A stretch of 32,262 bases of DNA from an uncultured Alistipes sp. (GTDB lineage Bacteria; Bacteroidota; Bacteroidia; Bacteroidales; Rikenellaceae), in NCBI GenBank assembly GCA_964514795.1, contig CAZESW010000001.1, positions 1 through 32,262 on the forward strand, given 5' to 3'. The notes under the pieces were generated by a model. That model did not search any database and was not told where the DNA came from. It worked only from the letters and a program-made list of their open reading frames with translations. How positions within the stretch are numbered: the first letter of the stretch is position 1; the number at the start of each line of letters is the position of its first letter. The translations under genes were made by a program, and so were the position numbers. This document shows, in pieces, positions 175-23,494 of the stretch.

Positions 175-3100
175 ATGAGAAACTTCGATTACCTGAAAGA
201 GCTTGACAATCTTACGGATCTGTACAACTACTGCAATGCAGCGGAGGTTACGCAGGTGAAGGATCCCGACAAGTCGGCGCTCAACAGCCGGCGGGCGTTG
301 GAGTGGCTGGTGCGTGCAATCTACGAGATGAAAGGCATCGAGGTGGACAGGGACAACCGCCGTGCATCGCTGTTCGAACTGGTGGACGGCGAGCCGTTCA
401 GGGAGTTCGTCGGCGACGATATGCTGATGAAGTCGGTGCACTATATCCGCAAGGCGGGCAACCGTGCGGCACACCTGGGTGCAGCGACGCGGAAAGAGGC
501 GTTCTTCGCACTGCTCAATCTCTATAATTTCGTCGGCGCGGTGCTCGTGAAGCTGCGGGTAATCGAGAATTTCGCCGATTTCGACCGCACGCTGGTGCCG
601 TCGTATTCGCCTATGCACGTCGCGGCGGCACCGCAGCCGCAGCCCGACCGCTCGTTCGTCGAGAGCGTGGACGTGTCGAAGATTGCGGATGAGCCGGTCG
701 AACGGCGCGCGACGGGAATCTCGGAGGCGGAGACTCGCCGCTACTTCGTCGATATGATGCTGCGCGAAGCGGGCTGGGAGGTCGCGACGACGAACGGAGC
801 AATCGCCCCGCTGCGGGCATGCGTCGAGGTCGAAGTGGATGGCATGCCGAACGCTTCGGGCCGCGGATATGCCGACTACGTGCTGTTCGGTGCGGACTGC
901 CTCCCGCTGGCGGTTATCGAGGCGAAGAGCACGAGCCGCTCGGTGGCGGAGGGCAGGCAACAGGCGGCGCTTTATGCCGACTGCCTCGAACGCCGCTACG
1001 GAGTGCGCCCCGTAATATACTGCACCAACGGCTACCGCACGGAGGTCGTGGACGGGCTGGGCTATCCTGCGCGTAACGTGTACGGCTACCATACTGCCGG
1101 GGAGCTCGAACTGCTGATACAGCGCAGGGGGCGTTCGGCGATTACGAATCTGGCGGTGAACGACGCAATCACGAACCGCGAGTACCAGAAACGCGCCGTC
1201 CGCAAGGTGTGCGAGCGCTTCAACGGCAATTTCCGCCGTATGCTGCTGACAATGGCGACGGGTACGGGCAAGACGCGAGTGGCGATTTCGCTTACCGACG
1301 TGCTTGTGCGCAACAACTGGGTGAAAAACGTGCTGTTTCTCGCCGACCGCACGGCGCTCGTGAAGCAGGCGGCGAAGAACTTCGCCAGACTGCTGCCGTC
1401 GGCGACGACCTGCATCCTGTCGGAGGATGCCAAACCCGACATGAAGGCGCGCGTGATGTTCAGCACCTATCAGACGATGATAAATTATATCGACGGCGAC
1501 ACGAAGGAGTTCTCGGTCGGACGCTTCGACCTCGTAATCGTCGATGAGGCGCACCGCTCGGTATTCGGCAAATATACGTCGATACTCGACTACTTCGATG
1601 CGCTGCTTGTCGGACTTACCGCGACTCCGCGTGACGACGTGGACCGCAGCACGTTCGACCTGTTCGGAGTCGATGCGGCGCAGACGTTCGCATACGAGTA
1701 CGGCGAAGCTGTGAGGGACGGCTATCTCGTGCCGTACAATGCTCTGAAACGCGGTACGCTGATTCTGAAATCGGGCATAGTCTACAACCGGCTGAGCGAC
1801 GAGGAGAAAGAGCAGATGGAGACCGTGTGGCGCTACGAGAAGGCGCGCAAGGCGCTGGACGACGGCGACGATTACAGCCGCAACATCGACAACAAGGAGA
1901 TTTTCCGCTACATATTCAATACGGACACGGTGGACAAGGTGTTGCAGGACACGATGAAGTGCGGACTGCGGGTGCAGAGCGGCGAATGTATCGGCAAGAC
2001 GATAATCTTCGCCTACAACCACCGCCATGCCGAGATGATTGTCGAGCGGTTCGGCGCGCTGTATCCGGAGTACGGAGCGGATTTCTGCGTGCTGATAGAC
2101 AATTACGTGAATTATGCGCAGAACCTTATAGACAATTTCGGGTTCCGCGACAAACTGCCGCAGATTGCCGTGTCGGTCGATATGCTCGATACGGGCATCG
2201 ATGTTCCGGACGTACTGAATCTGGTGTTCTTCAAGCCCGTTCGCTCGAAGATAAAGTTCATGCAGATGATTGGCCGCGGAACACGTCTGTCGGAGAATGT
2301 TTTCGGTGCGGGGCAGCACAAGGCGTATTTCAACATCTTCGACTGGTGCGACAACTTCGGATATTTCAGTCTCAATCCCGACGGCCGGGAGAGCGCTCCC
2401 GCTCCGTCGCTTACGGAGCGGCTGTTCGGCGTGCGGCTGGATATCGCAGTGGCATTGCAGGGCGCCGAGTACCGTCGGGACGAGTTCGCCGTGTCGCTGC
2501 ACGACCGAATCAAGACCGAATTGCGCGGACAGGTGGCGGAGCTGAACGAGGCCCGCATCGACGTCCGGACGAAGATTGAAACGGTGGACAGGTTCCGTAA
2601 GGCGGAGAGCTGGACATGCGTATCGCCGGTCGATGCCGCTGCACTGAAAGAGGAGATTGCTCCGCTGCTGGTGCGTCATTCGGGCGACGAGGCGGCGAAG
2701 AAATTCGACCTGCTGATGCTGAACGTCGAGTTGTCGAGGGTGGTTGCAGGTGTTGATGCCTCTGCCGGCAAGCACAGGGTCGTGCAGATTGCAAGACTGC
2801 TGCGCGAGCGGGCCTCGCATCCGTCCGTGGCGGCGAAAATCGCGACGATAGACGAGGTGCTGTCGCCGGATTTCTGGCACGAGCCGTCGCTCGGCGACCT
2901 CGAACGGGTGCGCACGGAGTTGCGCGACATAGTGCGGCTTATCGTCGGTGAGGGCGGTCGCACGTTTACCGTGAATATCGAGGATGCTGTGGTGGAGTCG
3001 GGCGAGGCCGAACCGTTCGTGCCGAAGATGACGTACCGCCAGTGCGTCATGGAGTATCTGGCGCAGAACAGGGATTTGCCGGTGATTCGCAAAATCATGA

Positions 3101-3507
3101 ATATCGAACAGCTCGACGGCGGCGATGTGCTCGAACTCGAACGCATACTGTGGAAGGAGCTTGGCACGAAGGAGGACTATCGCCGATACGTCGCCGAGGG
3201 TCGTATAATGTGCGGCGACAGTGTGGCGGTGTTCATCCGCTCGATTGTCGGTATCGACCGCAAAATCGCCGTCCGCAGATTCTCCGATTTCCTGTCGGGA
3301 CACGTGCTCAACTCGGAGCAGGAGGAGTATCTGAAAACAATCATCGACTACGTGTGCCGGAACGGCGACATCACGCTGGACGACATAGTCGGCAAATCGC
3401 CGTTCGATTCATTCGACTGGGGGCAGACCTTCGGCGAATATGTCGGATGCGTGAGGGACTATGTGAACGTGCTGCACGGTTCGATAATTCCGGACAATGT
3501 CGCTTAG
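175..3507 (+). CDS. hsdR: Type I restriction enzyme R subunit (EcoEI-like, DEAD/DEAH helicase-nuclease)
   Basis: 1110 aa. Nuclease motif ADYVLF...AVIEAK, Walker A MATGTGKT, DEAHRS, GLTATP, MLDTGID and QMIGRGTR helicase motifs. N-terminal SALNSRRALE...RKAGNRAAH region resembles DUF4145. Confidence 0.93.
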   Translation: MRNFDYLKELDNLTDLYNYCNAAEVTQVKDPDKSALNSRRALEWLVRAIYEMKGIEVDRDNRRASLFELVDGEPFREFVGDDMLMKSVHYIRKAGNRAAHLGAATRKEAFFALLNLYNFVGAVLVKLRVIENFADFDRTLVPSYSPMHVAAAPQPQPDRSFVESVDVSKIADEPVERRATGISEAETRRYFVDMMLREAGWEVATTNGAIAPLRACVEVEVDGMPNASGRGYADYVLFGADCLPLAVIEAKSTSRSVAEGRQQAALYADCLERRYGVRPVIYCTNGYRTEVVDGLGYPARNVYGYHTAGELELLIQRRGRSAITNLAVNDAITNREYQKRAVRKVCERFNGNFRRMLLTMATGTGKTRVAISLTDVLVRNNWVKNVLFLADRTALVKQAAKNFARLLPSATTCILSEDAKPDMKARVMFSTYQTMINYIDGDTKEFSVGRFDLVIVDEAHRSVFGKYTSILDYFDALLVGLTATPRDDVDRSTFDLFGVDAAQTFAYEYGEAVRDGYLVPYNALKRGTLILKSGIVYNRLSDEEKEQMETVWRYEKARKALDDGDDYSRNIDNKEIFRYIFNTDTVDKVLQDTMKCGLRVQSGECIGKTIIFAYNHRHAEMIVERFGALYPEYGADFCVLIDNYVNYAQNLIDNFGFRDKLPQIAVSVDMLDTGIDVPDVLNLVFFKPVRSKIKFMQMIGRGTRLSENVFGAGQHKAYFNIFDWCDNFGYFSLNPDGRESAPAPSLTERLFGVRLDIAVALQGAEYRRDEFAVSLHDRIKTELRGQVAELNEARIDVRTKIETVDRFRKAESWTCVSPVDAAALKEEIAPLLVRHSGDEAAKKFDLLMLNVELSRVVAGVDASAGKHRVVQIARLLRERASHPSVAAKIATIDEVLSPDFWHEPSLGDLERVRTELRDIVRLIVGEGGRTFTVNIEDAVVESGEAEPFVPKMTYRQCVMEYLAQNRDLPVIRKIMNIEQLDGGDVLELERILWKELGTKEDYRRYVAEGRIMCGDSVAVFIRSIVGIDRKIAVRRFSDFLSGHVLNSEQEEYLKTIIDYVCRNGDITLDDIVGKSPFDSFDWGQTFGEYVGCVRDYVNVLHGSIIPDNVA

Positions 3508-3550: not shown

Positions 3551-3691
3551 CGTTTTAGATACTCCCGTTCGGGAATGCTCAAATAAATTTGGCATTCCGC
3601 TCACTTATTCGTATCTTTAACTTCGTTTTAGATACTCTCGTTCGGGAATGCTCAAATAAATTTGGCATTCCGCTCACTTATTCGTATCTTT
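3551..3691. repeat. Direct repeat, 2 x 68 bp with a 73-bp period and an internal palindrome (REP-like)
   Basis: cgttttagatactc(c/t)cgttcgggaatgctcaaataaatttggcattccgctcacttattcgtatcttt at 3551-3618 and 3624-3691, one mismatch. Each copy contains a ggaatgc...gcattcc stem. Confidence 0.95.
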
Positions 3692-3692
3692 G
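3661..3692 (+). promoter_or_regulatory. Bacteroidetes housekeeping-sigma promoter (-33/-7) for the nuclease pair
   Basis: TTTG (3661-3664), a 20-nt spacer and TATCTTTG (3685-3692) match TTTG-N19-21-TAnnTTTG; 37 bp lie between it and ATG 3730. Confidence 0.75.
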
Positions 3693-3729
3693 ATTGCCTT
3701 TTCGGGGCATAAAAACAAATGAATAGAGT

Positions 3730-4509
3730 ATGAAAAAGACCATTATTCTTACACTTGCGGCCGTTGCTCTGTTGCCGCAGACCGTTTTTGCATGGGGCAC
3801 GCTGGGGCATGCGACGGTAATCAAAATCGCCGAACGCCATCTCACGGACAAGACGAAGGCGAACATCGCGAAATACATGCCTTACGACCTGAAAACCGAT
3901 GCCGTGTGGATGGACAAGCACCGCTGGGACGAGGAGTATGCCTATACGGGACGCTGGCACGGCTGCTATGTAGACCCCGTAACCTGCAAATACGATATGG
4001 ACCGCAGCGCCGTGAGCGACGATATAGTCCGCGGTATGGAGGTCGTGGAGCACAATCTGCGCAACTATCGCAATCTGACCGACTCGGCGGTGAACATGAA
4101 TCTGAAACTCATTCTCCACATGGTCGGCGACATGCATTGCCCGGTGCACAACCACTACGGACGCAAAGAGATGTGGCCGTGCACGCTCAACGGCGAGCCG
4201 TACAAGAAATTCCACACCGTGTACGACCGTATGCCGCAGCTCGTTCACGGTGACATCACTCCCGAACAACTCGCCGCGAAACTCGATACCTTCACGAAAA
4301 GCGAAATCCGCAAGACGCAGAAGGGTAGCTACGAGGATTGGATTTACGACTGCGCGGCGCAGTGCAAGGTTCTCTATGAGTGGAACCCTTACGATACGGA
4401 GGTGCTGAATCCCAAAACAGTCGAACTGTCGGCGGAACTCTCCGATGCCCAGCTGCGCAATGCGGGCTACCGTCTGGCGCGTTTGCTCAATGAATTTTTC
4501 GGCAAATAA
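3730..4509 (+). CDS. Secreted S1/P1 family nuclease
   Basis: Signal peptide, then mature N-terminus WGTLGH; AVWMDKHR, WH, HMVGDMHCPVH, FHTVYD and AGYRLA match the trinuclear-Zn ligand pattern of P1 nuclease. Confidence 0.9.
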   Translation: MKKTIILTLAAVALLPQTVFAWGTLGHATVIKIAERHLTDKTKANIAKYMPYDLKTDAVWMDKHRWDEEYAYTGRWHGCYVDPVTCKYDMDRSAVSDDIVRGMEVVEHNLRNYRNLTDSAVNMNLKLILHMVGDMHCPVHNHYGRKEMWPCTLNGEPYKKFHTVYDRMPQLVHGDITPEQLAAKLDTFTKSEIRKTQKGSYEDWIYDCAAQCKVLYEWNPYDTEVLNPKTVELSAELSDAQLRNAGYRLARLLNEFFGK

Positions 4510-4541
4510 TAACCAAAAACCATTATAACACAAAACCGTTT

Positions 4542-5318
4542 ATGAAAAAATTTCTTTTGCTTGCCGCAGCAAGCGTATTGTTCGCCCAAAGCGCGATGGC
4601 TTGGGGCAAACTCGGACACGAGGTGGTAATCAAGGTCGCCGAGCGTCATTTGACCAAAAAGACCAAGGCGAATATCGCCAAATATATGTCCTACGACCTG
4701 AAAACCGACGCCGTATGGATGGACAAGCACCGCCGCGACAAGGAAATCGCCTATACGACGGCTTGGCATGTCTACAATGTCGGCGACGACCACAACTACG
4801 ACCCGAATCCGCGTCTGATGAAGGGCGACGTTATGACGGGTGTGCGCACGGCCGACTATAACCTGCGCAACTATCAGAAACTTACCGACTCGGCGGTCGT
4901 TATGAACCTGCGGATGATTCTCCATTTCATCGGCGACATGCACTGCCCGACGCACTCCTATTTCCCGGGTCCTCGCTGCTTCTGGAAATGTTCGCTCAAC
5001 GGCAAGGAGCAGAAGTCGTTCCACGGCGTATACGACAACATGCCGTCGTTCCTCTACAAGAAGACTTCCGCAGAAACCGTTGCAAAGCAGATTGACAACC
5101 TCAAAAAAAGTGAAATCAAGAAGATTCAGGACGGAACGTTCTACGACTGGATTAAGGATTGCGCCGACAACAACTGCGTGATTTATGCGTGGAATCCGTT
5201 CAACACCGAGGAACTCAACCCTAATACGGTCGAACTCTCTCGCGATCTTGTAAATACCCAGATGCGCAACGCGGGCTATCGTCTGGCACTGCTGCTCAAC
5301 GAGTATTTCGGCAAATAA
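4542..5318 (+). CDS. Secreted S1/P1 family nuclease (paralog)
   Basis: AMA|WGKLGH, AVWMDKHR, WH, HFIGDMHCPTH, FHGVYD, AGYRLA; colinear with the preceding gene. Confidence 0.9.
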   Translation: MKKFLLLAAASVLFAQSAMAWGKLGHEVVIKVAERHLTKKTKANIAKYMSYDLKTDAVWMDKHRRDKEIAYTTAWHVYNVGDDHNYDPNPRLMKGDVMTGVRTADYNLRNYQKLTDSAVVMNLRMILHFIGDMHCPTHSYFPGPRCFWKCSLNGKEQKSFHGVYDNMPSFLYKKTSAETVAKQIDNLKKSEIKKIQDGTFYDWIKDCADNNCVIYAWNPFNTEELNPNTVELSRDLVNTQMRNAGYRLALLLNEYFGK

Positions 5319-5387: not shown

Positions 5388-7043
5388 CTATCGCTTTATC
5401 GACGGCATTGCGAATGCCTTCCTCGGTGCGATGCGCTTGGCCGGCTGCGCAGCCGCACGGCTCTGTCTGCCGATTTTGGCAGCCTGCTTGTGCATCTTGT
5501 GTGCAGTCGAGAATACTGCCAGAGCGCCGAAATCGCTTTCGTCCTCGGCGACAGGCATCTTGCCGCTCCACGAGCCGTTGAATTCATTATACAACTCGTC
5601 CAGGAGCTCGAAACTTACGGTGGTGATGTCGCCCTCCTTCGCGAGTTTCACCCAGCCTTCGATTGCTGCGGCGTAATCTTGAACATATCCTTCATTGTCC
5701 ATTGTCGCAAGGCTGATATACCATGTTCCGAGCATGCCGAACATAGGGTCGTCCTCTCCCATGACGAATCCGACGCCGTAATCGACGCTCATGTTGTACT
5801 GCTTCTCCGGGAGCGGAATCTCGGTTTTCGACGTGTTCGGGGTGATAAGCTCGATTATGATGCCGTCACCTGCCGAGTCGCCGATTTCGAGCACCCAGTT
5901 CGCGAGTCCGTTCTCGTAGAAGTCGCCGTAATATGCGAGAGATACCTCGTCGGCTTTCGAGAGGTCGAGCGTGTAGTCGCCGGTGAGCGTCGTGGTCGGA
6001 TCCTGCTGCGGCGACTGGTCTTCGAAATAAATCTCGCCCGTGTACGTTCCCTTGACCGAAACTCCTTCGGCGGTCGTCAGGTCGAGCACGAACTTGTAGC
6101 CGTCGAATCCGTACTCCGATACGGTTACCGTTCCGCCGGTGATGACGCTGAGTTCATCTGCCTCACCGTCGGCATCGACCTTGGCGCAGAACGAACCGTA
6201 TATCTCTCCGAGGAAGATTTCGCCCGGCTCGACAGTGCCGATTTCGTAGGTGTCGGCCACCGTGTAGGTGCCCGGTTCGAGGTATATGAAGGAGTTGCAA
6301 GGCTCGGCATACATCGTCAGAACGACATTGTAACCCGCCGCCGTCATCATGTAGTCGTCGTCGAGAGCCACATCCGACAGTCCGACCATGAACGTCGCCG
6401 TTCCCGTGCCGTACTGGTCGCCGCCATATACGCCTACCGCGCTGATAAGGTTCAGGTCTACCGGATTTTTGAGTGCCGGCAAATCACCCTCCGTTTCGTC
6501 GGGGTCGCCGAATACGAGTGCGCCTTTGTAGATGCAGGACAGCGTTTGGCCGTCGATGAGGGTGAATGTCGCCTGGAGCAGCTTGCCCTCCGAGCAGTCG
6601 GATACCGAAAGCGAACCTTCGGTGAAATCGACGCTCTTCTGTGCGCCGTTGTCCCAGATTTGCAGACGTGTGAAGTAATTGTTCAGCGTGCCCGCGGCGT
6701 TCGTGTCGGCGAGGATATATTTGCCGTTAGGCAGCACCGCAGTCTCGAACGACTCGGCTCCCTTGTCGCTGTAAAGGTCGAAGAATATGATGTGTCCTCC
6801 CTCCGGAGCAGCGTCGTCGCCCTGCTCGTCCTTGATGAATTCGGAGTCGCCGAGTCCGAAGTAGTAGTTGTAGACGCCTTCGGTCTTCCGGTCGCCGTAG
6901 TAGAGCACCTTCGTGGTGCGGTCCATTGTGATTTCTATGTCCGCCTTGACAGGAGGAAAATCGTCTTTCTGTTTCTCTTCTTTTTCGCACGATGCGAATA
7001 CGGCAGCAGTGAACAGAATTGCTGCAAGGAATAATTTTTTCAT
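5388..7043 (-). CDS. Acidic lipoprotein with three internal repeat domains, function unknown
   Basis: MKKLFLAAILFTAAVFAS-C lipobox followed by charged EKEEKQKDD; repeats begin LYYGD..., VYGGD... and AYYGD...; basic C-terminal tail. Confidence 0.8.
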   Translation of the reverse strand: MKKLFLAAILFTAAVFASCEKEEKQKDDFPPVKADIEITMDRTTKVLYYGDRKTEGVYNYYFGLGDSEFIKDEQGDDAAPEGGHIIFFDLYSDKGAESFETAVLPNGKYILADTNAAGTLNNYFTRLQIWDNGAQKSVDFTEGSLSVSDCSEGKLLQATFTLIDGQTLSCIYKGALVFGDPDETEGDLPALKNPVDLNLISAVGVYGGDQYGTGTATFMVGLSDVALDDDYMMTAAGYNVVLTMYAEPCNSFIYLEPGTYTVADTYEIGTVEPGEIFLGEIYGSFCAKVDADGEADELSVITGGTVTVSEYGFDGYKFVLDLTTAEGVSVKGTYTGEIYFEDQSPQQDPTTTLTGDYTLDLSKADEVSLAYYGDFYENGLANWVLEIGDSAGDGIIIELITPNTSKTEIPLPEKQYNMSVDYGVGFVMGEDDPMFGMLGTWYISLATMDNEGYVQDYAAAIEGWVKLAKEGDITTVSFELLDELYNEFNGSWSGKMPVAEDESDFGALAVFSTAHKMHKQAAKIGRQSRAAAQPAKRIAPRKAFAMPSIKR

Positions 7044-7259: not shown

Positions 7260-7802
7260 ATGATAGACAAGATTTTGGAGCACAATCGACGTTTCGTCGA
7301 GGAGAAGGGATACGAACGGTTCATCACCGACAAGTATCCGAACAAACGCATCGCGATAGTGACCTGCATGGATACACGTCTCGTGGAACTGCTGCCTGCG
7401 GCGCTCGGATTCCGCAACGGCGACGTGAAGATTATCAAGAATGCGGGTGCGACCATCACCAACCCGTTCGACAGTACGGTGCGCAGCCTGCTCGTGGCGA
7501 TATACGAACTCGGGGTCGAGGAGGTGATGATAATCGGACATACCGAGTGCGGCGTTCAGGGCATGGACAGCGCGGAGATGCAGCATGCCATGCGCGAACG
7601 GGGCATTTCGGAGCAGCATATCAATCTGATGAAACACTGCGGCATCGACCTCGACAGCTGGCTCCACGGCTTCGACGACACCGAATCGGCAATCCTCGAA
7701 ACGGTCGATTTGGTGCGCAACCATCCGCTCGTTCCGGACGATATCGTCGTCAAGGGCTATATCATGGACTCGACGACCGGCGAACTCCGCCCGATAGAGT
7801 AG
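7260..7802 (+). CDS. Beta-class carbonic anhydrase
   Basis: 180 aa with Zn ligands TCMDTR and GHTECG, plus the IKNAG motif. Confidence 0.93.
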   Translation: MIDKILEHNRRFVEEKGYERFITDKYPNKRIAIVTCMDTRLVELLPAALGFRNGDVKIIKNAGATITNPFDSTVRSLLVAIYELGVEEVMIIGHTECGVQGMDSAEMQHAMRERGISEQHINLMKHCGIDLDSWLHGFDDTESAILETVDLVRNHPLVPDDIVVKGYIMDSTTGELRPIE

Positions 7803-7821
7803 TGGCAAATGTAATAATCTT

Positions 7822-7854
7822 AGCACCCTGCGATAAATTTTATCGCAGGGTGCT
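7822..7854. terminator. Strong hairpin, probable terminator after the carbonic anhydrase gene
   Basis: agcaccctgcgataaa-t-tttatcgcagggtgct, perfect 16-bp arms; the following U-tract is short. Confidence 0.75.
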
Positions 7855-7924
7855 TTATTGTCATTATCTACACAATAAATACGATGATAATTATTGACAG
7901 GTAGCGCTATAAGCGATGCTTCAT

Positions 7925-8196
7925 ATCTCTACACAAGAGATTTTGCAAAGTTATCACAAAAATCATTAAATCAAAACATTTGTAAAAAATAAATATTATT
8001 ATTTATTTGATTTCATAAAACATACGGACATTGATCGTATTCCAATTTTCTGTTTTGGGTATATATTGTTTTATATGTGTATTTGGATGTTCTTAATGAA
8101 CAATAAACCCTGTTTTTAATACATATATCCGTCGTATCCGCTTAATTCATTTATTCATAGTGCTTTATCCGCTTGCAAAATCTCTTGTGTAGAGAT
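7925..8196. promoter_or_regulatory. Candidate invertible promoter (inverton): 24-bp perfect inverted repeats flanking 224 bp
   Basis: IR-L atctctacacaagagattttgcaa (7925-7948) is the exact reverse complement of IR-R ttgcaaaatctcttgtgtagagat (8173-8196). Inside, the minus strand carries TTTG (7972-7975), an 18-nt spacer and TAACTTTG (7946-7953). Confidence 0.8.
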
Positions 8197-8237
8197 CGGT
8201 GGCGGATTATAATTACTAATAAAATATATTTAGCACT

Positions 8238-8987
8238 ATGAGTAACAACAAAACCGTTGTCCCTGGAATGGGCAACTCTTTCGGATTTGGAGGTTCGTCG
8301 AATCAGAACGGACAATTTTCTAATAATCAGCAACCTGCGCAAGGATACAATGGAACGCATTTCCCGGGAATGGATGCAGGAGTCCGTGGCGGAACGATGG
8401 CGGCGACTGAAACGCACAAGCCTGTTATGGGATTTTTGTACAGTGTTTCGCGTACGGCTTGCGGCGAATATTGGCCGCTTTACATGGGTCTGAATACGAT
8501 AGGCCGCTCTACCACCTGCTCCGTCCGTCTGTCGGAGGCTACGATTTCGGACAATCATGCCGAAATAGTTATTCGCCAGATGAAAAATCCGGACAGCGTT
8601 CTGGTTTCGATTCAGGATGCCCGTTCGACCTGCGGAACCCTGCTCAACGGAAGCAGCCTCGGATTCGATGCGCAGGAGTGCCATAACGGCGATATTATTA
8701 CTATCGGCGAACATTACGAGTTGTATTTTGTGCTTATAGACACCAAGGCTCTCGGTCTGGATGTCAGAACGGATTTCATCCCGACAGGAGCCGCACTCGG
8801 AGGCGGTCAGATGCCGATGAATCCTATGGGCGGTCCTGCCGGCGTAACTATCCCGTTCGGTCAGTCGCAGACTCCACAGCCGGCTCCGGCTCCGCAGTTT
8901 ACCCAGGTGGCTGGCGGTAATGCGAATGCAGGTTTCCAGCAGCAGCGTTCGAGCTCGACTGTAATTATGCCGGGTTTAAAGAAATAG
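8238..8987 (+). CDS. Cytoplasmic FHA-domain protein with low-complexity flanks
   Basis: NTIGRS...ATISDNHA...DARSTCGTLLNG...NGDIITIG FHA pattern; Gly/Gln/Pro-rich termini; no TM segment. Confidence 0.85.
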   Translation: MSNNKTVVPGMGNSFGFGGSSNQNGQFSNNQQPAQGYNGTHFPGMDAGVRGGTMAATETHKPVMGFLYSVSRTACGEYWPLYMGLNTIGRSTTCSVRLSEATISDNHAEIVIRQMKNPDSVLVSIQDARSTCGTLLNGSSLGFDAQECHNGDIITIGEHYELYFVLIDTKALGLDVRTDFIPTGAALGGGQMPMNPMGGPAGVTIPFGQSQTPQPAPAPQFTQVAGGNANAGFQQQRSSSTVIMPGLKK

Positions 8988-9031: not shown

Positions 9032-10012
9032 ATGCAGAATGTTGTAGTAGGGCAGAACTCATCGATTGTTTATCTTTTAGTAAACGGATTCTGGTATTGT
9101 TACGACTCTGCCGGATACACTCTGGGCGATGGCGCAATGGGAGTCGTTTATCTCGGTTTCAGATGCGACAATCAGGACCGGGTGGCGATAAAGAAGGTAA
9201 AAGACGAATACGCTAATAACAGACGGGTCAGAGAGTGTGCACGCAATGAAGCGCTTATGGCGTTCTCGCATCCGAATATCGTCAGGATGCTCGGATATTG
9301 CGAATATGCCGAGGATTATGGACCTATATATATATTAAGCGAATATGTACCGGGTATTACGTTCGAGGATCATGTAAGGATGCGGCTGTCGGTGCTCCCT
9401 GCGAAAGACCGTATTGCCAGGATAGTTTCTGATTTGCGCCCGATATGGTCGGCTTTGCAGTATCTGCATTCCAACGGTGTGGTGCATAAAGATATTAAAC
9501 CGTCCAACCTGATGATAGACAGTATGTCCCGGGTGAAACTGATGGACTTGGGCGTATCCGGGTTGTTCGGCGATTCGTCGGAGCGTATTTTGGAGTTTGT
9601 CGGAACCCCGCAATATGCGGCTCCGGAACAGATTCCGAGTTCGGGGGTCTACGGCGCGATAGATGCGAGAACGGACATTTATGCATTCGGGGTCATGCTT
9701 TACGAACTGATTACAGGCGTCAATCCGTTTGCGGGAGACTCTTATGAAGAAACATTGAGCAACCAGATTCATAAAGAGTTGCCGAATGATAACGTCTTGC
9801 CGCCGGAGTTGTTCAGGATAATCAGAAAGGCAACGGCTAAGAATCCGGATTCGAGATACGGTTCGGTTGCGGAGGTTGATGCGGATATCGTCCGGTTCCT
9901 TAATCCGAAAAGTCCGGACGGCGTGTCGTCGAAGGTCGTAGTTGCGGTTGTCGGTATTATGCTAATATTGCTGTCTGTTGTTGCGGCGGCTTTAATTATA
10001 AGTAGTTTATAG
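9032..10012 (+). CDS. Hanks-type Ser/Thr protein kinase with C-terminal TM anchor
   Basis: GDGAMGVVY, VAIKK, HPNIV, HKDIKPSN, DLG, GTPQYAAPE, DIYAFG; hydrophobic C-terminal helix. Confidence 0.93.
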   Translation: MQNVVVGQNSSIVYLLVNGFWYCYDSAGYTLGDGAMGVVYLGFRCDNQDRVAIKKVKDEYANNRRVRECARNEALMAFSHPNIVRMLGYCEYAEDYGPIYILSEYVPGITFEDHVRMRLSVLPAKDRIARIVSDLRPIWSALQYLHSNGVVHKDIKPSNLMIDSMSRVKLMDLGVSGLFGDSSERILEFVGTPQYAAPEQIPSSGVYGAIDARTDIYAFGVMLYELITGVNPFAGDSYEETLSNQIHKELPNDNVLPPELFRIIRKATAKNPDSRYGSVAEVDADIVRFLNPKSPDGVSSKVVVAVVGIMLILLSVVAAALIISSL

Positions 10013-10987
10013 ATGGAACTCATTAAAACAAAATTTGCGTCGAAAGGCGTTGTCGTATCCCGAATAGGCGGACGGAGCGAGAATCAGGATTGTTACGGTT
10101 TTCGCGATACGCCGCTCGGGCAGGTCGTCGTCGTGTGCGACGGTATGGGCGGAATGCAGGGCGGACGAATCGCCTCGACGATAGCGGTGAACAGCATTAT
10201 CGGTTATCTCGCATCGCAGTCGGAAGATGCCGATGTCTCCGATGCGCTGGTTCAGGCTGTCGGGCATGCCAATGCCGATATTATCAATACGGGTAGCGAA
10301 AATCCCGATTTGTATGGAATGGGAACTACGGTTACCGTATTGATTCTTAACAAAACCTGTGCGACGATAGCGTATGTCGGCGACAGCCGCATATATCAGT
10401 TGCGGGGCAAGAAAAAGGTATTCAGAACATTCGACCACTCCATGGTGTTCGAAATGGTGAAAAGCGGAGTCCTGACCGAGGAGCAGGCGCGTTTGTCGGA
10501 ACAGTCCAATGTTATTTTGAAGGCTTTGGGTGTCTATCAGGAGATTGTTCCCGATATTCACAGGCTGCCATATCTCAAAGGCGACAGATTCGTATTGTGT
10601 TCAGACGGATTCTGGGGTGCGATGCCGGAGAAAAATTTCCTGTCCTATGTGTCGCACAAGACGGACAAGATTGCGAATGTAATCGAACATACGGCAAATG
10701 TGGTCGATAAGATAGGCCGCGACAAGGGTGGAAATCATGATAATCTGACTGCCGCCATTATCGATGTGAAGTGTAATTCATTAATGAAAGTGAAAATGAG
10801 CAAGACTGTTAAATTTATTTTGGCAACGCTTATCCTGCTGTTGGTTTCCAGCGTGGCGTTGAACGTATATTTCATTGTTAAGCAGAGAAATACCGCTCAG
10901 ACCGAGCAGACAGCAGACGCCGGTTCGGCTGCTGCCACGGAAACTGGCGACGGCGCAACGAAATCTGCCGGGGCTCCCGAAGAATAG
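10013..10987 (+). CDS. PP2C/PPM family Ser/Thr phosphatase with C-terminal TM
   Basis: GGRSENQD, VCDGMGG, MGTT, VGDSR, DHS, LCSDG, HDN motifs; TM FILATLILLLVSSVALNVYFIV; starts immediately after the kinase stop codon. Confidence 0.94.
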   Translation: MELIKTKFASKGVVVSRIGGRSENQDCYGFRDTPLGQVVVVCDGMGGMQGGRIASTIAVNSIIGYLASQSEDADVSDALVQAVGHANADIINTGSENPDLYGMGTTVTVLILNKTCATIAYVGDSRIYQLRGKKKVFRTFDHSMVFEMVKSGVLTEEQARLSEQSNVILKALGVYQEIVPDIHRLPYLKGDRFVLCSDGFWGAMPEKNFLSYVSHKTDKIANVIEHTANVVDKIGRDKGGNHDNLTAAIIDVKCNSLMKVKMSKTVKFILATLILLLVSSVALNVYFIVKQRNTAQTEQTADAGSAAATETGDGATKSAGAPEE

Positions 10988-11011
10988 CAAATAATTAAAA
11001 ACAATTTGGAT

Positions 11012-11620
11012 ATGAAAAAATTTCTGACTATCGGTCGCGATACTCAATGCGATATCTGTATCAATGACAGTACGGATGTCGTGAGTCGCAATCATGCAAT
11101 TTTGGAAATCGGTTCGAACGGGAAGTATTTTATTACCGACCAGAGCCGCAACGGAACTTATGTAAACGGCATGAGAATATCGCCGAACGAGAAGGTTCCG
11201 GTAACGCGAAACGATGTCGTATCATTGGCGCACGTAAGGGAGCTCGATTGGTCTCTCGTTCCGAAGAACAACACTGTCGTGCTGTGGGCTGCAATCGCAT
11301 GCGGTGTCGTTGCAGTCGTTGCGGTCGTTGCCCTGCTGCTGCATTTCGGGGTATTCTCCGGCACCGACAGCAACAAAGGCGCTCTTAATCTCGGTGGCGG
11401 CGGTTCTGCCGTGGAGCAGCCCGGTGGCGGCGGTGCGGTAGTCGAAACTCCGGATAACGGCGACAATGCCGAAGACCCCGACAATCAGGCCCAGGAAGAG
11501 ACCAAGCCTGCCGACGAAAAGGAAAATCCGAAACCAGACAAGAAGAAACCGGCGGACGGCAACAAGAAAACGGACGACGGCAAGAAAGACGACAGCGCGG
11601 TTGTCGATGCAATTTACTAA
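11012..11620 (+). CDS. FHA-TM protein with charged low-complexity C-terminal tail
   Basis: TIGRD...VSRNHA...QSRNGTYVNG, then a TM helix and a Gly/Asp/Lys-rich tail. ATG 11012 preferred over TTG 11006. Confidence 0.88.
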   Translation: MKKFLTIGRDTQCDICINDSTDVVSRNHAILEIGSNGKYFITDQSRNGTYVNGMRISPNEKVPVTRNDVVSLAHVRELDWSLVPKNNTVVLWAAIACGVVAVVAVVALLLHFGVFSGTDSNKGALNLGGGGSAVEQPGGGGAVVETPDNGDNAEDPDNQAQEETKPADEKENPKPDKKKPADGNKKTDDGKKDDSAVVDAIY

Positions 11621-11646
11621 CAGAATAAAATAAAAACTTAAATAAT

Positions 11647-13092
11647 ATGAGACTCATTTCAATAGGAAGTTCCGCCCAGGCGCAGATTGTGCTGAACAGT
11701 CAGTTTGTCAGCGGATATCATGCAGAATTGTTGCAGCTCGACAATGGCGATATGCTGCTTGTGGACAAGGGCAGCCGCAACGGTACATTCGTTAACGGCA
11801 ACCGTATCGCTCCGGAAAAGGAGGTGTCGGTAACCCGCAACGATACGATTACTATCGCCGACCAGACTCTGGCGTGGTCGAGCATTCCGGTAATGAATAT
11901 TCCCGACAAGAATAATATTAAGGTTATCAAGGGTATAGGTACCCATTACATGAATGCGATTCATGTTTCGGGCAATCAGGTGAGCCGATTCCATGCGACT
12001 GTCAAACAGACGAAGGACGGCAAGTGGTATATCTGCGACCATAGCACCAACGGCACCACGGTGAATGGTGTACGTATTCCGAAAGACCAGTATGTCCGCT
12101 TCAAGAAAGGCGATGCGATTGCCTGTGCGGGCGTAAGTGTTCTGAACCCGGCTACCGGCAGCGGTGGCGACGGCAATATCGTTAAGACATTGAGTATCGC
12201 ACTTTGCGCCTGCCTGCTGATAGGACTCGGTGTATTTGCAGCATTGAAGTTCATTGATTTCCCAGGTTCAAAAATGTCGAATGAAGAGATATATGCCGAG
12301 TATGCGCCATCGACCGTTCTTCTGCATACCGCTTATTATTTCAAGATAACTACGCCTAAATTCGGAACGCAGAGATTTGTCGTGGAAAATGGCAAATTGC
12401 CTTATTATGACGGAAGCAATGCCATGCATGCTCTTGCATCCGGATTCTTTATTTCCGAGGACGGCGTGATTGTTACCAATCTGCATGTCGTCGCTCCGTG
12501 GCTGTTCGGAGAGGACAAGGATGTGCTGGAATATGTTAAGAATCTGTATTATAAAGCGAATTTTTCTACTGCACTCTCCGATATTAAGGTGGAAGGCGCT
12601 ATCGAATATATTGGTGCTGTTCCGAACAATCAGTTTTTCGATTCTACCAATAACATCAAGTTGCGGATTGTTATGCAGAGCGACAAAACGGATATAGATT
12701 TGGCGCTTCTGCAAACGATGAATGGCAAACTGCCTGCCGGTTCGACATACGTTCCGGTAGACAAAATCTGTACGGACAATGTTCCGGTGGGAACTAAATT
12801 GTTTACTATGGGTTTCCCGATTTCGAATTATTTGCAGGACCTGGATGACTTCGAGCGCAGTCATACGAAAGTCTTGCAGGCTACGGGTGCTGCCGGAGTG
12901 ATTACACAAAACAATGACAAATATATATATGGATTCGATGCCGCATCCTATCATGGGGCAAGCGGTTCGCCTATTTTCGATGAACACGGACGTCTGATCG
13001 GTGTTGCACGTGCCGGACTTGTCGTGCAGGGATATAATTTCGGAGTAAAGGCGAGATATCTCAAAAAACTGCTCGAATCCGACCAGGACTAA
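11647..13092 (+). CDS. Tandem FHA-FHA-TM-trypsin-like serine protease
   Basis: Two FHA-like units (VSGYHA/SRNGTFVNG and VSRFHA/STNGTTVNG), a TM helix, then ASGFFIS, TNLHV (His), DIDLALL (Asp) and GASGSP (Ser). Confidence 0.9.
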   Translation: MRLISIGSSAQAQIVLNSQFVSGYHAELLQLDNGDMLLVDKGSRNGTFVNGNRIAPEKEVSVTRNDTITIADQTLAWSSIPVMNIPDKNNIKVIKGIGTHYMNAIHVSGNQVSRFHATVKQTKDGKWYICDHSTNGTTVNGVRIPKDQYVRFKKGDAIACAGVSVLNPATGSGGDGNIVKTLSIALCACLLIGLGVFAALKFIDFPGSKMSNEEIYAEYAPSTVLLHTAYYFKITTPKFGTQRFVVENGKLPYYDGSNAMHALASGFFISEDGVIVTNLHVVAPWLFGEDKDVLEYVKNLYYKANFSTALSDIKVEGAIEYIGAVPNNQFFDSTNNIKLRIVMQSDKTDIDLALLQTMNGKLPAGSTYVPVDKICTDNVPVGTKLFTMGFPISNYLQDLDDFERSHTKVLQATGAAGVITQNNDKYIYGFDAASYHGASGSPIFDEHGRLIGVARAGLVVQGYNFGVKARYLKKLLESDQD

Positions 13093-15541: not shown

Positions 15542-17095
15542 ATGGAAAATGTAAAAAAAATTGCGATACTGTTGTGTCTGTTGGTGCCGATGTTCGCCGC
15601 CGCACAGACTTTGTCCAATAAGGAGCGGCGTCATATCAATATGCGGCTGCTTAATCTTGTAGAGCAGTACGAGTCTACTGCTGCACTGTACGACGACGGG
15701 GCGAAATATGCGTTCATGCAACTTTTCGGCGACGAGAAAGCTCCGGTGTACAGCGATATGCTCGATTATGCGGCAGGCAGACAGATAGATGCCGCCGAAT
15801 ACGTGAAAGTGTTGGGCAGTAAACAGAATGTCTCCATACACATGATGAACGTCAGCCACGACGACTATGTGTTGGAGAACGGACGTTGGACGACCACCGT
15901 AACTTTCGATAAATCCATTGTTTACAATGACGACAATGGCATTCTGTTCTCGTCGCCCGAATATTATAAGGCGAACTATTCGCTTTCGCTGAAATGCGTA
16001 TACGACAAGGAGGCGGACCGCTGTTTCATCCGGTCGGTAGACGGAACGATGAACTCGGAGCGGCAGCATCTGCCGGACAAATTCGTCGTCATCAATCACA
16101 CCGACGACAAGGTGGATAAAATATCGGTGGACGGCAGTCATTTGGAGTTCAACAGCTTCGACCAGGCGTTCGCTTCCTCGGGTTCGATTCACGCCTGGAA
16201 TGACGATGTCCGCATAAAGGCCGATACGCTGGCTAAGACGGACAATTACGAGTTCGTAAACCTGAAATACCGCAAGGTGCATTGGCGTGCGAAAGTCCGT
16301 TTCGCTTACGCTCTCGGGTCGGTTTTCAAAGTCGCATCGCCGATGAAGGCGTACTCCGCCAAATCTTCCGGATTCGAGGTCGGTGCCGAATTGGGATATA
16401 ATATCCCGCTCGGCCGGACGACATCCATGGGTCTGTTCGCGGGTGCAGCCTATTCGTCGAGCAAACTCGAACTCGGAATGAACAATGTCGAATATTCCTA
16501 TCGGACGATGGACCATAGCGGCAAGGGCTATACTCGTCATTATAAGTTCGACAGTATCACGGAGGGAGTGTCTTATACCGACATCGCGGTTCCGGTTTAT
16601 CTGAATTTCGACCATAAGCTCGTCAAGAATCTGTATCTGAGTTGGAATGTAGGGGCTAAAATCTATCTTAACGGAACGATGAAGATTCAGCCTTACCATT
16701 TGTCGGGTGCGGTATATGGAGACTACAACGGCAATATCGTTTCGTCACAGTCGTCGGATGCTTTCGGCGATGTCAGCGGCGATTGCAACGTATTCCTCTA
16801 TCCGAACAGTTACAACCGCAACAAGACGGATTTAAGCGTTTTGGGCGGATTGAGCCTGAGTTACAATATCTTCAAGGGCTCGGTGCTGGCATTCCTTAAA
16901 TACAGTTACGAATACGGTCTTACGGACGTTCACAAATCCGACGGCAAGGTTTTGTTCGATGCGGACAGCAATCAATACCCGATGGTATATTCGGCTCATC
17001 GCAACGCCAATGTCGCCACCCGTTCGTTTATGGATTGCGTATCGTATAAAAGACAGACCATGTGGCTCGAACTGGGATTTATGTTTAAATTTTAA
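15542..17095 (+). CDS. Outer-membrane beta-barrel protein (PorT-like barrel) with N-terminal soluble domain
   Basis: Start at ATG 15542 gives signal MENVKKIAILLCLLVPMFAAA|Q; amphipathic strands GFEVGAELGYNI and YTDIAVPVYLNF; C-terminal BAM-type LELGFMFKF. Confidence 0.78.
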   Translation: MENVKKIAILLCLLVPMFAAAQTLSNKERRHINMRLLNLVEQYESTAALYDDGAKYAFMQLFGDEKAPVYSDMLDYAAGRQIDAAEYVKVLGSKQNVSIHMMNVSHDDYVLENGRWTTTVTFDKSIVYNDDNGILFSSPEYYKANYSLSLKCVYDKEADRCFIRSVDGTMNSERQHLPDKFVVINHTDDKVDKISVDGSHLEFNSFDQAFASSGSIHAWNDDVRIKADTLAKTDNYEFVNLKYRKVHWRAKVRFAYALGSVFKVASPMKAYSAKSSGFEVGAELGYNIPLGRTTSMGLFAGAAYSSSKLELGMNNVEYSYRTMDHSGKGYTRHYKFDSITEGVSYTDIAVPVYLNFDHKLVKNLYLSWNVGAKIYLNGTMKIQPYHLSGAVYGDYNGNIVSSQSSDAFGDVSGDCNVFLYPNSYNRNKTDLSVLGGLSLSYNIFKGSVLAFLKYSYEYGLTDVHKSDGKVLFDADSNQYPMVYSAHRNANVATRSFMDCVSYKRQTMWLELGFMFKF

Positions 17096-17913
17096 TGTAC
17101 ATGAATAATTCTGTAAAAATAATATTGATAGCCGTTGTCTTCGTCGCGTGCGCAGCGATTGGCTATATGGTTATGCCGTCGAAAAAGTCGGATATTACTA
17201 CCACGGTTACCGGCGGTGGAGACGGAGGCGGCGTTGGAATGACAGGTCCGACTCCCCAACCGCCGATTACACCACCTGGGACGGGGTCGGAACCTCCGGT
17301 AGAAGTACAACCGGACTCGGACTCCGAACCGGACTCGGACCAGGAATCGGAACCGGAACCGGAACCCGAACCGGCAAATGCCGATGCTGTTCCCGAAATC
17401 AAGAGCGTGGTTGTCGGACAGAGAAATTCCAATAATTACAAAAAAATTGGAGTTCCGTTTAGTATTAAGGCTACGGTCGCATCGGGCGACCCGTTGGTGT
17501 ACGAATTGTACGAAATCGGCGGAACGACAGCCAAATATACGTCGAATAACGGCAGCTTCGCAGAGGTTTACCCTGTCGATGGCGGCAAGTATCTGCTGAA
17601 AGTCGTAAATAAAAAGACGGGTGATTTCGCAGAACGACAGGTCGCCGGATTCGACAAGATAAAAAAATATTCGTCTGCCGATTTGCAGGCGCAGTTGAAT
17701 GTCGAGACTACAGAGCGGTTGTTTTATTTCCATTTCGATACCGACAATCTGAAATTCGACTGCGAGGGTGTTGATCCATCTGAAAAGCCGACGAGTCTCA
17801 ATGCCTTATTGTCGAGCCGCTCGGCTAACGGCTGGGGCTATGTTGTCGTAGGCACACCGCAGTACGATAAGTATAATAGAATCACTTATTTTAAAGTTAG
17901 GGTAACGGAATGA
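17095..17913 (+). CDS. Membrane-anchored protein with Pro/Glu/Asp-rich spacer, function unknown
   Basis: N-terminal TM, Gly/Pro/acidic linker, beta-rich C-terminal region; TAATG overlap with the upstream gene. Confidence 0.75.
   Translation: MYMNNSVKIILIAVVFVACAAIGYMVMPSKKSDITTTVTGGGDGGGVGMTGPTPQPPITPPGTGSEPPVEVQPDSDSEPDSDQESEPEPEPEPANADAVPEIKSVVVGQRNSNNYKKIGVPFSIKATVASGDPLVYELYEIGGTTAKYTSNNGSFAEVYPVDGGKYLLKVVNKKTGDFAERQVAGFDKIKKYSSADLQAQLNVETTERLFYFHFDTDNLKFDCEGVDPSEKPTSLNALLSSRSANGWGYVVVGTPQYDKYNRITYFKVRVTE
17311..17373 (+). repeat. Coding hexamer-type repeat (ccggaa/tcggac variants) encoding PDSDSEPDSDQESEPEPEPEP
   Basis: Read directly: ccggactcggactccgaaccggactcggaccaggaatcggaaccggaaccggaacccgaaccg. 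Confidence 0.8.
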
Positions 17914-17915
17914 TT

Positions 17916-18545
17916 ATGAAACGGGCATTTTTAATATTGTTGTCGTTGGCGACGATTCTGCCGTCGCGGGCGCAGATTGTTTCGACGAATCAGGATTTGT
18001 CGTTCGTCTATGTCGCGCATGATGAGAATACACCGGTTCAGGTGCTTATCGGACGTCTGAAAGATACATACAACGATGCGCTGAATTATCCGGAGGAGCG
18101 TGCCGCGATATTTTATCTTCCTAACGGAGAGTTTCCCGTTGTCGTTCGGGTGAATACCGCCAATGATAATCGTGAGGCATTCGGTGAACTCATCAATGAA
18201 TTGCAGACCAAACGGTCGCACGACATAGACCGTTATACCGACATGACACGCATTCAGTCTATATTGGAGGAAAACGACATAGTCGATGATTACGGCAAAC
18301 CGCGTTTCCGTTCCGTAGAGTGGCTCTATTATATCAATTCGACGTTCTGGAATCTGGGCAACCACGAGTATATAATCGCTTCCCTGTTCTGGATTTTCGA
18401 TATGGAGCAGTTGATAAAATCCAAATATCTGCGGGTAAATATTTTTTATAGCGGTGAATACGACGTGATTCCGTTCAACAAAGAACAGCCGTTCGGCGAC
18501 AAGGCGTTGTGCCGTTCGATGAACTTTATCCCGATGCCGTACTAA
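17916..18545 (+). CDS. Secreted hypothetical protein
   Basis: MKRAFLILLSLATILPSRA|Q signal peptide (alternative ATG at 17910 overlaps the upstream stop); in-operon position. Confidence 0.75.
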   Translation: MKRAFLILLSLATILPSRAQIVSTNQDLSFVYVAHDENTPVQVLIGRLKDTYNDALNYPEERAAIFYLPNGEFPVVVRVNTANDNREAFGELINELQTKRSHDIDRYTDMTRIQSILEENDIVDDYGKPRFRSVEWLYYINSTFWNLGNHEYIIASLFWIFDMEQLIKSKYLRVNIFYSGEYDVIPFNKEQPFGDKALCRSMNFIPMPY

Positions 18546-18576
18546 CAAAAGAAGAGTATAAAAAGTTACATAAATA

Positions 18577-21033: not shown

Positions 21034-21900
21034 ATGAAGAAACTTTTCGATATAGAAAATTTGAGATGCTCCTATGCCAAGAATTATGAGGAGGGAGTGT
21101 CGAAAGTGGTATTGGAGATAAACAAACTTGTTATCCCGAAAGGGAAAAAGGTGTTTATCGTCGGCGAATCGGGTATAGGCAAGAGTACGATTCTCGAAAC
21201 GCTCGGCATGATGAACAATACCATCGTACCCGACGGCAAGGCGAAATTCCACTTCTGCGAGGACGACAGGATAGTCGATCTCGTCCATCTGTGGAAAAGC
21301 GGCGACAGAGAATTGTCGGGCTTCCGTCAGAAACATTTCAGTTTCATATTCCAGAGCACCAATCTGATGCGCAACTTCACCGCATACGAGAATATCGCAC
21401 TGACGCGCATGTTGCAGGGATACTCCCGCGAGTCGTCGTTCGCCCGTGCGAGCGAGGTGATGAAAGACCTCGGATTGGAGCATATCGACGAAACCCGCAT
21501 GACGCAGGAGTTGTCGGGCGGTCAGCAGCAGCGACTGGCGTTCGCCCGTGCGGTGCTGCCCGATTTCACGGTGCTGTTCGGCGACGAGCCTACCGGCAAC
21601 CTCGACAGCGACAATGCCGTGAAAGCGATGGACTTGCTGTCGCACAAACTTTCGCAGCTCGACGGCAGTTCGGCTATCATCGTGTCCCATGATATGCATC
21701 TCGCCGTTACGTTCGCCGATATAATCATCAAGATTCGCAAGGAGAGCCGTCTGTCGAAATCGGCGAATGACGAAATCGTGTATTACGGCGTAATCGATGA
21801 CGACAGCGTATTCGTGCCTGACGAGAGCGGCGCAGCATGGTCCAATGGCAAGGAGTCCTATGCGTCTGCCGATTTTGAATCATACTTAAAGAGATGGTAA
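21034..21900 (+). CDS. ABC transporter ATP-binding protein, LolD/MacB/FtsE family
   Basis: GESGIGKS, FIFQ, LSGGQQQR, FGDEPTGNLD, VSHD. Confidence 0.93.
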   Translation: MKKLFDIENLRCSYAKNYEEGVSKVVLEINKLVIPKGKKVFIVGESGIGKSTILETLGMMNNTIVPDGKAKFHFCEDDRIVDLVHLWKSGDRELSGFRQKHFSFIFQSTNLMRNFTAYENIALTRMLQGYSRESSFARASEVMKDLGLEHIDETRMTQELSGGQQQRLAFARAVLPDFTVLFGDEPTGNLDSDNAVKAMDLLSHKLSQLDGSSAIIVSHDMHLAVTFADIIIKIRKESRLSKSANDEIVYYGVIDDDSVFVPDESGAAWSNGKESYASADFESYLKRW

Positions 21901-21901
21901 T

Positions 21902-23473: not shown

Positions 23474-23494
23474 AAAATAAAAGAAAATCGATAT

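Follow-up and report, generated by a model that had tools for sequence, protein, structure and literature searches.

A predicted invertible promoter, OFF in the present assembly, in front of a Ser/Thr kinase, FHA and envelope operon of an uncultured Alistipes sp.

The segment and the operon behind it

The window, by which we mean the whole stretch of 32,262 nucleotides that was analysed, contains a short segment enclosed by inverted repeats and, behind it, a long run of co-directional genes. The features are listed below with their positions in the window.

7822 to 7854, plus strand: terminator-like hairpin with a 15-bp stem, 3′ of the carbonic anhydrase gene (putative function)
7864 to 7880, plus strand: third, degenerate recombination site outside the segment, matching at 13/17 positions and with an identical core
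7925 to 7948, plus strand: left inverted repeat, with a dyad at 7925-7941, arms ATCTCT/AGAGAT and the asymmetric core ACACA at 7931-7935
7946 to 7975, minus strand: predicted Bacteroidetes sigma-A-type promoter, -7 box TAACTTTG at 7953-7946, TTTG at 7975-7972, 18-nt spacer, directed away from the operon
7949 to 8172, no strand assigned: predicted invertible segment, 224 bp, 25% GC, OFF in the present assembly
8173 to 8196, minus strand: right inverted repeat, dyad at 8180-8196, core at 8186-8190, 41 nt from the first ATG
8238 to 28893, plus strand: predicted operon of 17 genes spaced by -4 to 68 nt, GC 48.5% against 56% in both flanks
8238 to 8987, plus strand: g1, soluble FHA protein, the first gene
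9032 to 13092, plus strand: g2-g5, Ser/Thr kinase, PP2C phosphatase, FHA protein and protein with two FHA domains and a trypsin-like protease, each with one hydrophobic membrane segment
13117 to 15539, plus strand: g6, exported protein without a Pfam family, and g7, second membrane-anchored Ser/Thr kinase
15542 to 17095, plus strand: g8, predicted beta-barrel of the outer membrane, NTF2-like domain at the N-terminus
17095 to 21018, plus strand: g9, membrane-anchored Pro-rich protein, g10, predicted exported protein with a vWA-like fold, and g11, TssR-like protein
21034 to 26464, plus strand: g12, ABC ATPase, g13, FtsX-like permease, and g14, predicted multi-BACON lipoprotein of 989 aa
26493 to 28893, plus strand: g15, FHA protein with multiple TM segments, g16, small predicted lipoprotein, and g17, FHA-DUF805 protein

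The arms at 7925-7948 and 8173-8196 are complementary at all positions and spaced by 224 nt, so that the perfect 24-bp repeats around AT-rich DNA claimed in the original prediction were found as described, and the dyad ATCTCT-ACACA-AGAGAT is present in both arms, as was also claimed. The GC content of the segment (25%) stands against 53.6% for the genome. Further copies of the 24-mer, which the prediction had proposed to look for, do not occur at up to 5 mismatches in the 1.82-Mb assembly, which is 73% complete, and the inner segment had no homolog among 61 genomes searched at the DNA level. A single site-like match on another contig (C94) was dropped because it lies in coding-like sequence and has no partner site. 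How unusual is such a pair in this genome? Perfect inverted pairs of at least 14 bp, 40-1000 nt apart, number 46 in the assembly, mostly of 14-15 bp, and two pairs only (27 and 42 bp) outrank the 24-bp pair in length. Other possible invertons or MITEs are three inverted pairs that are related to one another (15-22 bp, spaced by about 150-190 nt; C4:2746-2896, C14:6461-6654 and C81:1302-1481) and one 27-bp pair that has a promoter-like box at either end (C234:2361-2910). The degenerate third site is oriented like the left repeat, from which it lies 61 nt to the left.

The Bacteroidetes promoter consensus used here is that cited in PMC4747536. Its only match tied to the segment is the minus-strand TAACTTTG, whose last three bases fall within the left repeat, while the opposite, right end of the segment reads TCCGC+TTG; both ends agree with the earlier description, including the TTTG 18 nt upstream. 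If the segment is inverted in silico, TAACTTTG moves to 8168 on the plus strand, 70 nt 5′ of the ATG at 8238, and this reproduces the operon-facing box expected at 8168-8175. It had also been claimed that no plus-strand TAnnTTTG lies between the repeats and this ATG. None exists as an exact match in 7801-8240, though one-mismatch -7 candidates with a TTG 19-20 nt upstream are found at 8002 and 8078; with a TTG required 17-22 nt upstream, no plus-strand TAnnTTTG occurs in 7855-28893, the whole operon included. A second box, TACATTTG, lies on the minus strand at 7813-7806, just past the stop codon of the carbonic anhydrase gene and antisense to that gene, without a TTG upstream.

All 17 reading frames of the operon are open. 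In total they encode two Ser/Thr kinases, one PP2C and five FHA proteins, one of which is fused to a trypsin-like domain, and the kinases, the phosphatase and most FHA proteins have a single membrane segment. The predicted structure of g8 (pLDDT 88) gives OmpA/Ail-type matches with E about 1e-5 and an NTF2-like match with E 1.5e-3, and its sequence has no match among solved structures. The vWA-like fold of g10 is a modest assignment (TM about 0.45). All three TssR Pfam domains (PF17643, PF20782 and PF20781) are matched by g11 over the cut-off, while LolD/MacB-like matches of g12 stay below the cut-offs. The original prediction spoke of an entire Ser/Thr phosphosignalling apparatus. The kinases, PP2C and FHA proteins are indeed there, but the barrel, the vWA-like protein, the TssR-like protein, the ABC/FtsX pair and the BACON lipoprotein stand beside them, and because of this the cargo is better called a signalling plus envelope/surface operon, which fits phase variation of the cell surface. 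Relatives of g1 were not found in viral contigs.

Does the TssR-like protein mark a type VI secretion locus? No operon protein matches TssN, TssO, TssP or TssQ, a family profile search found no tube, spike, sheath or baseplate genes in the operon, and the VgrG-type family PF04717 was matched in 0/5 genomes carrying the operon; the search for PF17642 (TssD) carries no information since its control was silent. As the spike gene family had no match in these five genomes, the locus is not a T6SS locus on present evidence.

The rest of the window has features of its own. Tandem GAATT-type repeats of 7/14/56 nt at 1-168 precede a type I restriction HsdR gene (175-3507), a 73-bp direct repeat (95%) at 3551-3696 lies 5′ of two tandem S1/P1 nuclease paralogs (3730-5318), and the minus strand at 5388-7043 encodes a predicted lipoprotein of 551 aa without a Pfam or NCBIfam match.

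The site family and the candidate recombinase

The dyad in the repeats has a published counterpart. Yan, Hall and Jiang described in 2022 the invertons IP-ARG-1, IP-ARG-2 and IP-ARG-3 with repeats TCTCT-N5-AGAGA, ATCTCT-N5-AGAGAT and TCTCC-N5-GGAGA, respectively, which are validated by reads and have a TAnnTTTGC promoter and an upstream invertase of about 400 aa, the IP-ARG-2 sites having locus-specific cores (PMC8748976). In our survey, paired TCTCT-N5-AGAGA sites 100-450 nt apart occur in 59/401 genomes of the family, against 3 for a reversed-pattern control. Inverted cores match in 37 of the 41 pairs examined, drawn from 43 sources (the window, L028 and L060-L100, of which L060-L067 had been chosen for matching cores and L071-L100 had not); no pair is direct, and the four mismatches are cross-pairings of tandem switches. 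Most of the examined pairs have a -7 box just inside one site. A promoter in this position that points outward is a trait of the IP-ARG-type class and is present in the window, where the -7 box is 5 nt from the dyad as against 10-19 nt in 27 members of the site family, and the promoter spacer is 18 nt as against mostly 19-20 nt. Tyrosine recombinases account for 16/53 ORFs flanking the site pairs, and the named cargo beside them includes SusC-like, UpxY/NusG, DUF3575 and LRR proteins. At two of these loci, L075 and L076 (also in G220), two tandem invertons with the cores TCATG and CCGCA lie beside one recombinase, a four-state arrangement like that of IP-ARG-2. Judged from its sites, the switch in the window belongs to the published Bacteroidales class operated by tyrosine invertases, an assignment supported by the motif, and the switch type as such is known.

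This has a consequence for the mechanism. The original prediction had named Mpi of B. fragilis as its precedent, and this part has to be given up: the sites carry the motif of tyrosine invertases, and the serine-recombinase (Resolvase) family PF00239 has no match in the 73%-complete assembly, while the control was positive in 12/14. Since the site motif is that of the IP-ARG invertons, the suitable precedent is distant action of the Tsr19 type.

Then, which enzyme could act on the segment? As had been noted from the start, there is no recombinase gene in the window: the recombinase families have no match among the 24 ORFs scanned. The assembly has five PF00589 matches, three of which belong to the invertase family with Phage_int_SAM_5 and Phage_integrase domains (on contigs C85, C155 and C58); thus the search for a cognate enzyme brought three candidates, though none adjacent. 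The C155 enzyme has its own local switch with TTCT-type arms, and that of C58 is distant. The C85 enzyme, the best candidate, has no local site pair. By visual inspection it keeps the conserved motifs of the catalytic region, and its sister group (98/97) consists of invertases located at TCTCT sites (L160-L163); it is to be noted that 21/25 C85-like loci, C85 included, lack a nearby site pair, so that the site preference of the group rests on four loci. We tentatively propose, at somewhat less than even chances, that this orphan invertase operates the window's switch in trans; otherwise the enzyme would be that of C155 or C58 or be encoded in the missing 27% of the genome. The local switch of C155 (C155:2422-2856) consists of a single left site and two right ones (TTCT-TGTTA-AGAA), and similar promoter-like sequence precedes each of them. 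Many members of the genus have invertase-family genes of about 400 aa (L164-L182) that share 54-60% identity with C85 and are followed by no site pair over the next 900 nt; these are possibly trans-acting invertases as well.

Orientation in relatives and other explanations

If the segment is a switch, both orientations should be seen somewhere. Orthologs of g1 were collected from 31 genome loci and 25 metagenome loci, and the order of the operon genes is largely conserved among them; a second variant of the operon has WG-repeat proteins, barrels and an S41 peptidase in place of the TssR block. At least 400 nt of upstream sequence are available at 49 loci, which contain near-duplicate lineages and are not independent, and 12/49 have a site pair directly upstream of g1, four in the ON state (L105, L116, L117 and L122) and eight OFF (L108, L119, L120, L123, L132, L134, L139 and L148); the pair finder gave 0/200 on shuffled controls. 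The other 37, including the closest relative L101, have no site pair within 700 nt, and among them are L107 and L138, where g1 is not the first gene. Seven short loci were not counted, of which L104, L133 and L137 end inside or just past the gene-proximal site. Carriers of the operon under such switches include Alistipes, Odoribacter, Paludibacteraceae and other Bacteroidales. The operon is also found in records titled Barnesiella and Treponemataceae (L109 and L110), whose copies group tightly with those of Bacteroidales, by transfer or misbinning. The operon genes of L139 appear split into many fragments, which would fit sequencing indels in its assembly.

Opposite orientations do exist among near-identical contigs of other lineages. 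L132 (OFF) and L133 (ON) share 99.96% identity over 2248 bp, and their inner 68 nt run in opposite directions, and L139 (OFF) and L137 (ON) are 98.7% identical over 5098 bp with a reversed match of 32 nt, 22 nt of which are repeat. For the window's own switch, six sequencing runs were compared (word shares 0.05-0.11; no RNA run was listed), and X1 alone was informative. A contig from this run is about 86% identical over g1-g2, and its match starts exactly at 8173; of the 30 nt before this point, 25/30 match the flipped segment and 13/30 the present orientation, as counted by eye, and these 30 nt complete a -7 box facing the operon with the 18-nt spacer kept. This contig is from a relative, not this strain, with the segment flipped ON, as seen over 30 nt only. 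A piece from run X2 at 7965-8001 was disregarded, its flanks being unlike. The flipped state of this strain itself was not seen: no listed run exceeds 11% of words, no matched contig crosses the segment, and the 21-mer was not found in metagenome contigs. The proposal to look for both orientations in reads or strains is borne out for the relative and for two other lineages.

A tyrosine recombinase lies directly upstream of the switch in 8/12 switched operon loci, and 4/12 are, like the window, without it. The eight operon-adjacent enzymes do not form one clade among 25 (5 changes, AU p 7e-6), and the presence of a switch changes 8 times, at least 5 of them forced, on a rapidly built tree that had 49 operon rows and omitted 8 loci with truncated PP2C; neither the recombinase nor the operon tree separates gain from loss. 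An NCBIfam search with eight invertases gave Xer matches below the cut-off only and no named invertase cluster. Arms and cores vary by lineage (TCTCT, TTTCT, TCTCC and GTTCY). Because enzymes and cores are unrelated between lineages, the pattern suggests repeated capture or replacement of the switch on this operon. At L102, L103, L135 and L136, an ON-facing promoter lies about 80-100 nt 5′ of g1 with a single decayed site that has no partner, apparently a locked-ON relic.

Such relics tell us that switches on this operon do decay. Is the segment in the window, then, a switch that could once be inverted and was locked OFF when the lineage lost its invertase? No flipped reads come from this strain and no recombinase is adjacent, as this would have it, but the repeats match at 24/24 positions, 17/17 frames are open, and three recombinases of the family are in the assembly. 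Moreover, the lack of an adjacent enzyme is shared with four other operon switches, one lineage of which is found in both states (L139/L137), and Tsr19 offers a precedent for a distant promoter (PMC4747536). We regard a frozen switch as unlikely. It is less likely still that the segment is just one input among others, a non-consensus promoter being active also in the present orientation and giving high and low states. The cmr switch of C. difficile has extra promoters (PMC8844915), and the boxes at 8002 and 8078 are candidates here; both, however, break the TA of the -7 box, such matches are expected in a segment of 75% AT, and a plus-strand consensus promoter is absent from 7855-28893. As for the idea that the repeats mark the ends of a small mobile element, are scars left by one or arose by chance, without any role in switching, inverted pairs of 15-42 bp that are unrelated in sequence do occur elsewhere in the assembly, but the repeat is single-copy in the genome and has the published invertase motif, and the flipped X1 contig and the adjacent invertases in relatives speak against it as well. 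The opposite orientations of L132/L133 and L139/L137 already largely refute it, and we give it hardly any weight.

It is very likely that the inverted-repeat switch is real, and we consider it probable that it is an active phase-variation switch which controls the operon. The central claim of the original prediction, an OFF invertible promoter before a kinase operon, thus gains from the flipped relative, the contig pairs of opposite orientation and the invertases adjacent to the switch in relatives.

Proposed mechanism, meaning and known systems

Tyrosine recombinases bind palindromic arms as monomers and exchange strands across matching cores. In the window, the two ATCTCT-N5-AGAGAT sites would be recombined by a tyrosine recombinase whose gene lies elsewhere in the genome, its monomers sitting on the arms, and strand exchange across the matching 5-bp cores would flip the 224-bp segment with its promoter. 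These matching, asymmetric cores would impose inversion over excision and would prevent recombination between switches that differ in their cores. In OFF cells, transcription would run leftward into the hairpin region, and the hairpin at 7822-7854 would stop read-through into the operon; in ON cells, all 17 genes would be transcribed, probably as one transcript. An assembly that spans the envelope and is in part exposed at the surface is presumably governed by the kinases, phosphatase, FHA proteins and membrane protease, and by switching, part of the population may hide this apparatus or be spared it, under pressure from phage or host or on account of its cost. This strain presumably still flips the segment.

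What would this mean? On a broader scale, we put forward as a conjecture, with odds slightly against it, that gut Bacteroidales share a widespread and uncharacterised envelope machine controlled by phosphorylation, which was independently put under ON/OFF switches of tyrosine invertases perhaps at least five times, sometimes in trans; its parts would be Hanks kinases, PP2C, FHA proteins, a membrane protease, the TssR-like protein, the vWA protein, the outer-membrane barrel and the BACON lipoprotein. If true, the operon encodes a surface-exposed apparatus that is costly or targeted by phages, and phase-locked strains would be a direct route to its function, with natural ON and OFF states at hand for testing. 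In gut Bacteroidales, an invertible promoter marks those loci on which fluctuating selection is strongest, and repeated switching of one operon with invertases and cores that are unrelated points to a surface system, as yet unknown, that it pays to hide. In addition, many cells may keep such a 20-kb operon silent, and the presence of its genes then overstates activity.

How new is the cargo? Capsule, EPS, SusC/D, fimbriae and resistance genes are mainly what has been described behind invertible promoters of gut Bacteroidales. Our literature search found no publication in which an invertible promoter of Bacteroidales stands in front of an FHA/Ser-Thr kinase operon, though an unremarked entry in large inverton tables is possible. 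The word "kinase" does not occur in the main text of PMC11892184, nor do "kinase" and "FHA" in the accessible text of PMC11602134, which gives "signal transduction" as an enriched class. It thus appears to be a known type of switch on a recurrent cargo for which we found no description. No description was found of FHA, kinase and envelope genes as such a cargo; phase-variable signalling as such is known, for example from CmrRST.

Among known systems, the IP-ARG invertons are close in their sites, as the window repeats carry the IP-ARG-2 motif; they differ in that their cargo is glycan or resistance genes, often on ICEs, and their invertase is local, whereas the window has FHA, kinase, PP2C and envelope genes, no local invertase and a -7 box overlapping the repeat. 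The plasmid pMMCAT has two adjacent invertible promoters and an upstream tyrosine invertase at its eps locus (bioRxiv 10.1101/2024.04.29.590671). A 98-kb B. fragilis plasmid, probably pMMCAT, encodes an integrase that shares 40% identity with the L116 enzyme, and carries two T[CT]CT-N5-AGAGA-type site pairs before upxY; in contrast to the window, pMMCAT is plasmid-borne with a local enzyme and exopolysaccharide cargo. Tsr19 (BF2766) of B. fragilis inverts one local and one distant promoter (IVp-I and IVp-II) of surface loci (PMC4747536) and is the precedent for action in trans; its cargo differs from that of the window. In gene content, the TssR-like g11 recalls type VI secretion. In Proteobacterial T6SS, a PpkA/PppA/Fha pathway gives post-translational control, and the kinase, phosphatase and FHA logic of the operon resembles it. 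TssR is a subunit of the membrane complex (TssNQOPR) of Bacteroidota T6SS-iii (PMC10781749), from which the operon differs in that its proteins gave no TssN/O/P/Q match and the five genomes none to the VgrG-type family. In regulatory logic, a comparable case is CmrRST of C. difficile, a signal-transduction operon under an inversion switch whose ON state has a promoter (PMC8844915), as proposed here; that is a two-component system of a Firmicute, whereas the window combines Hanks kinases, PP2C and FHA proteins with parts of the envelope.
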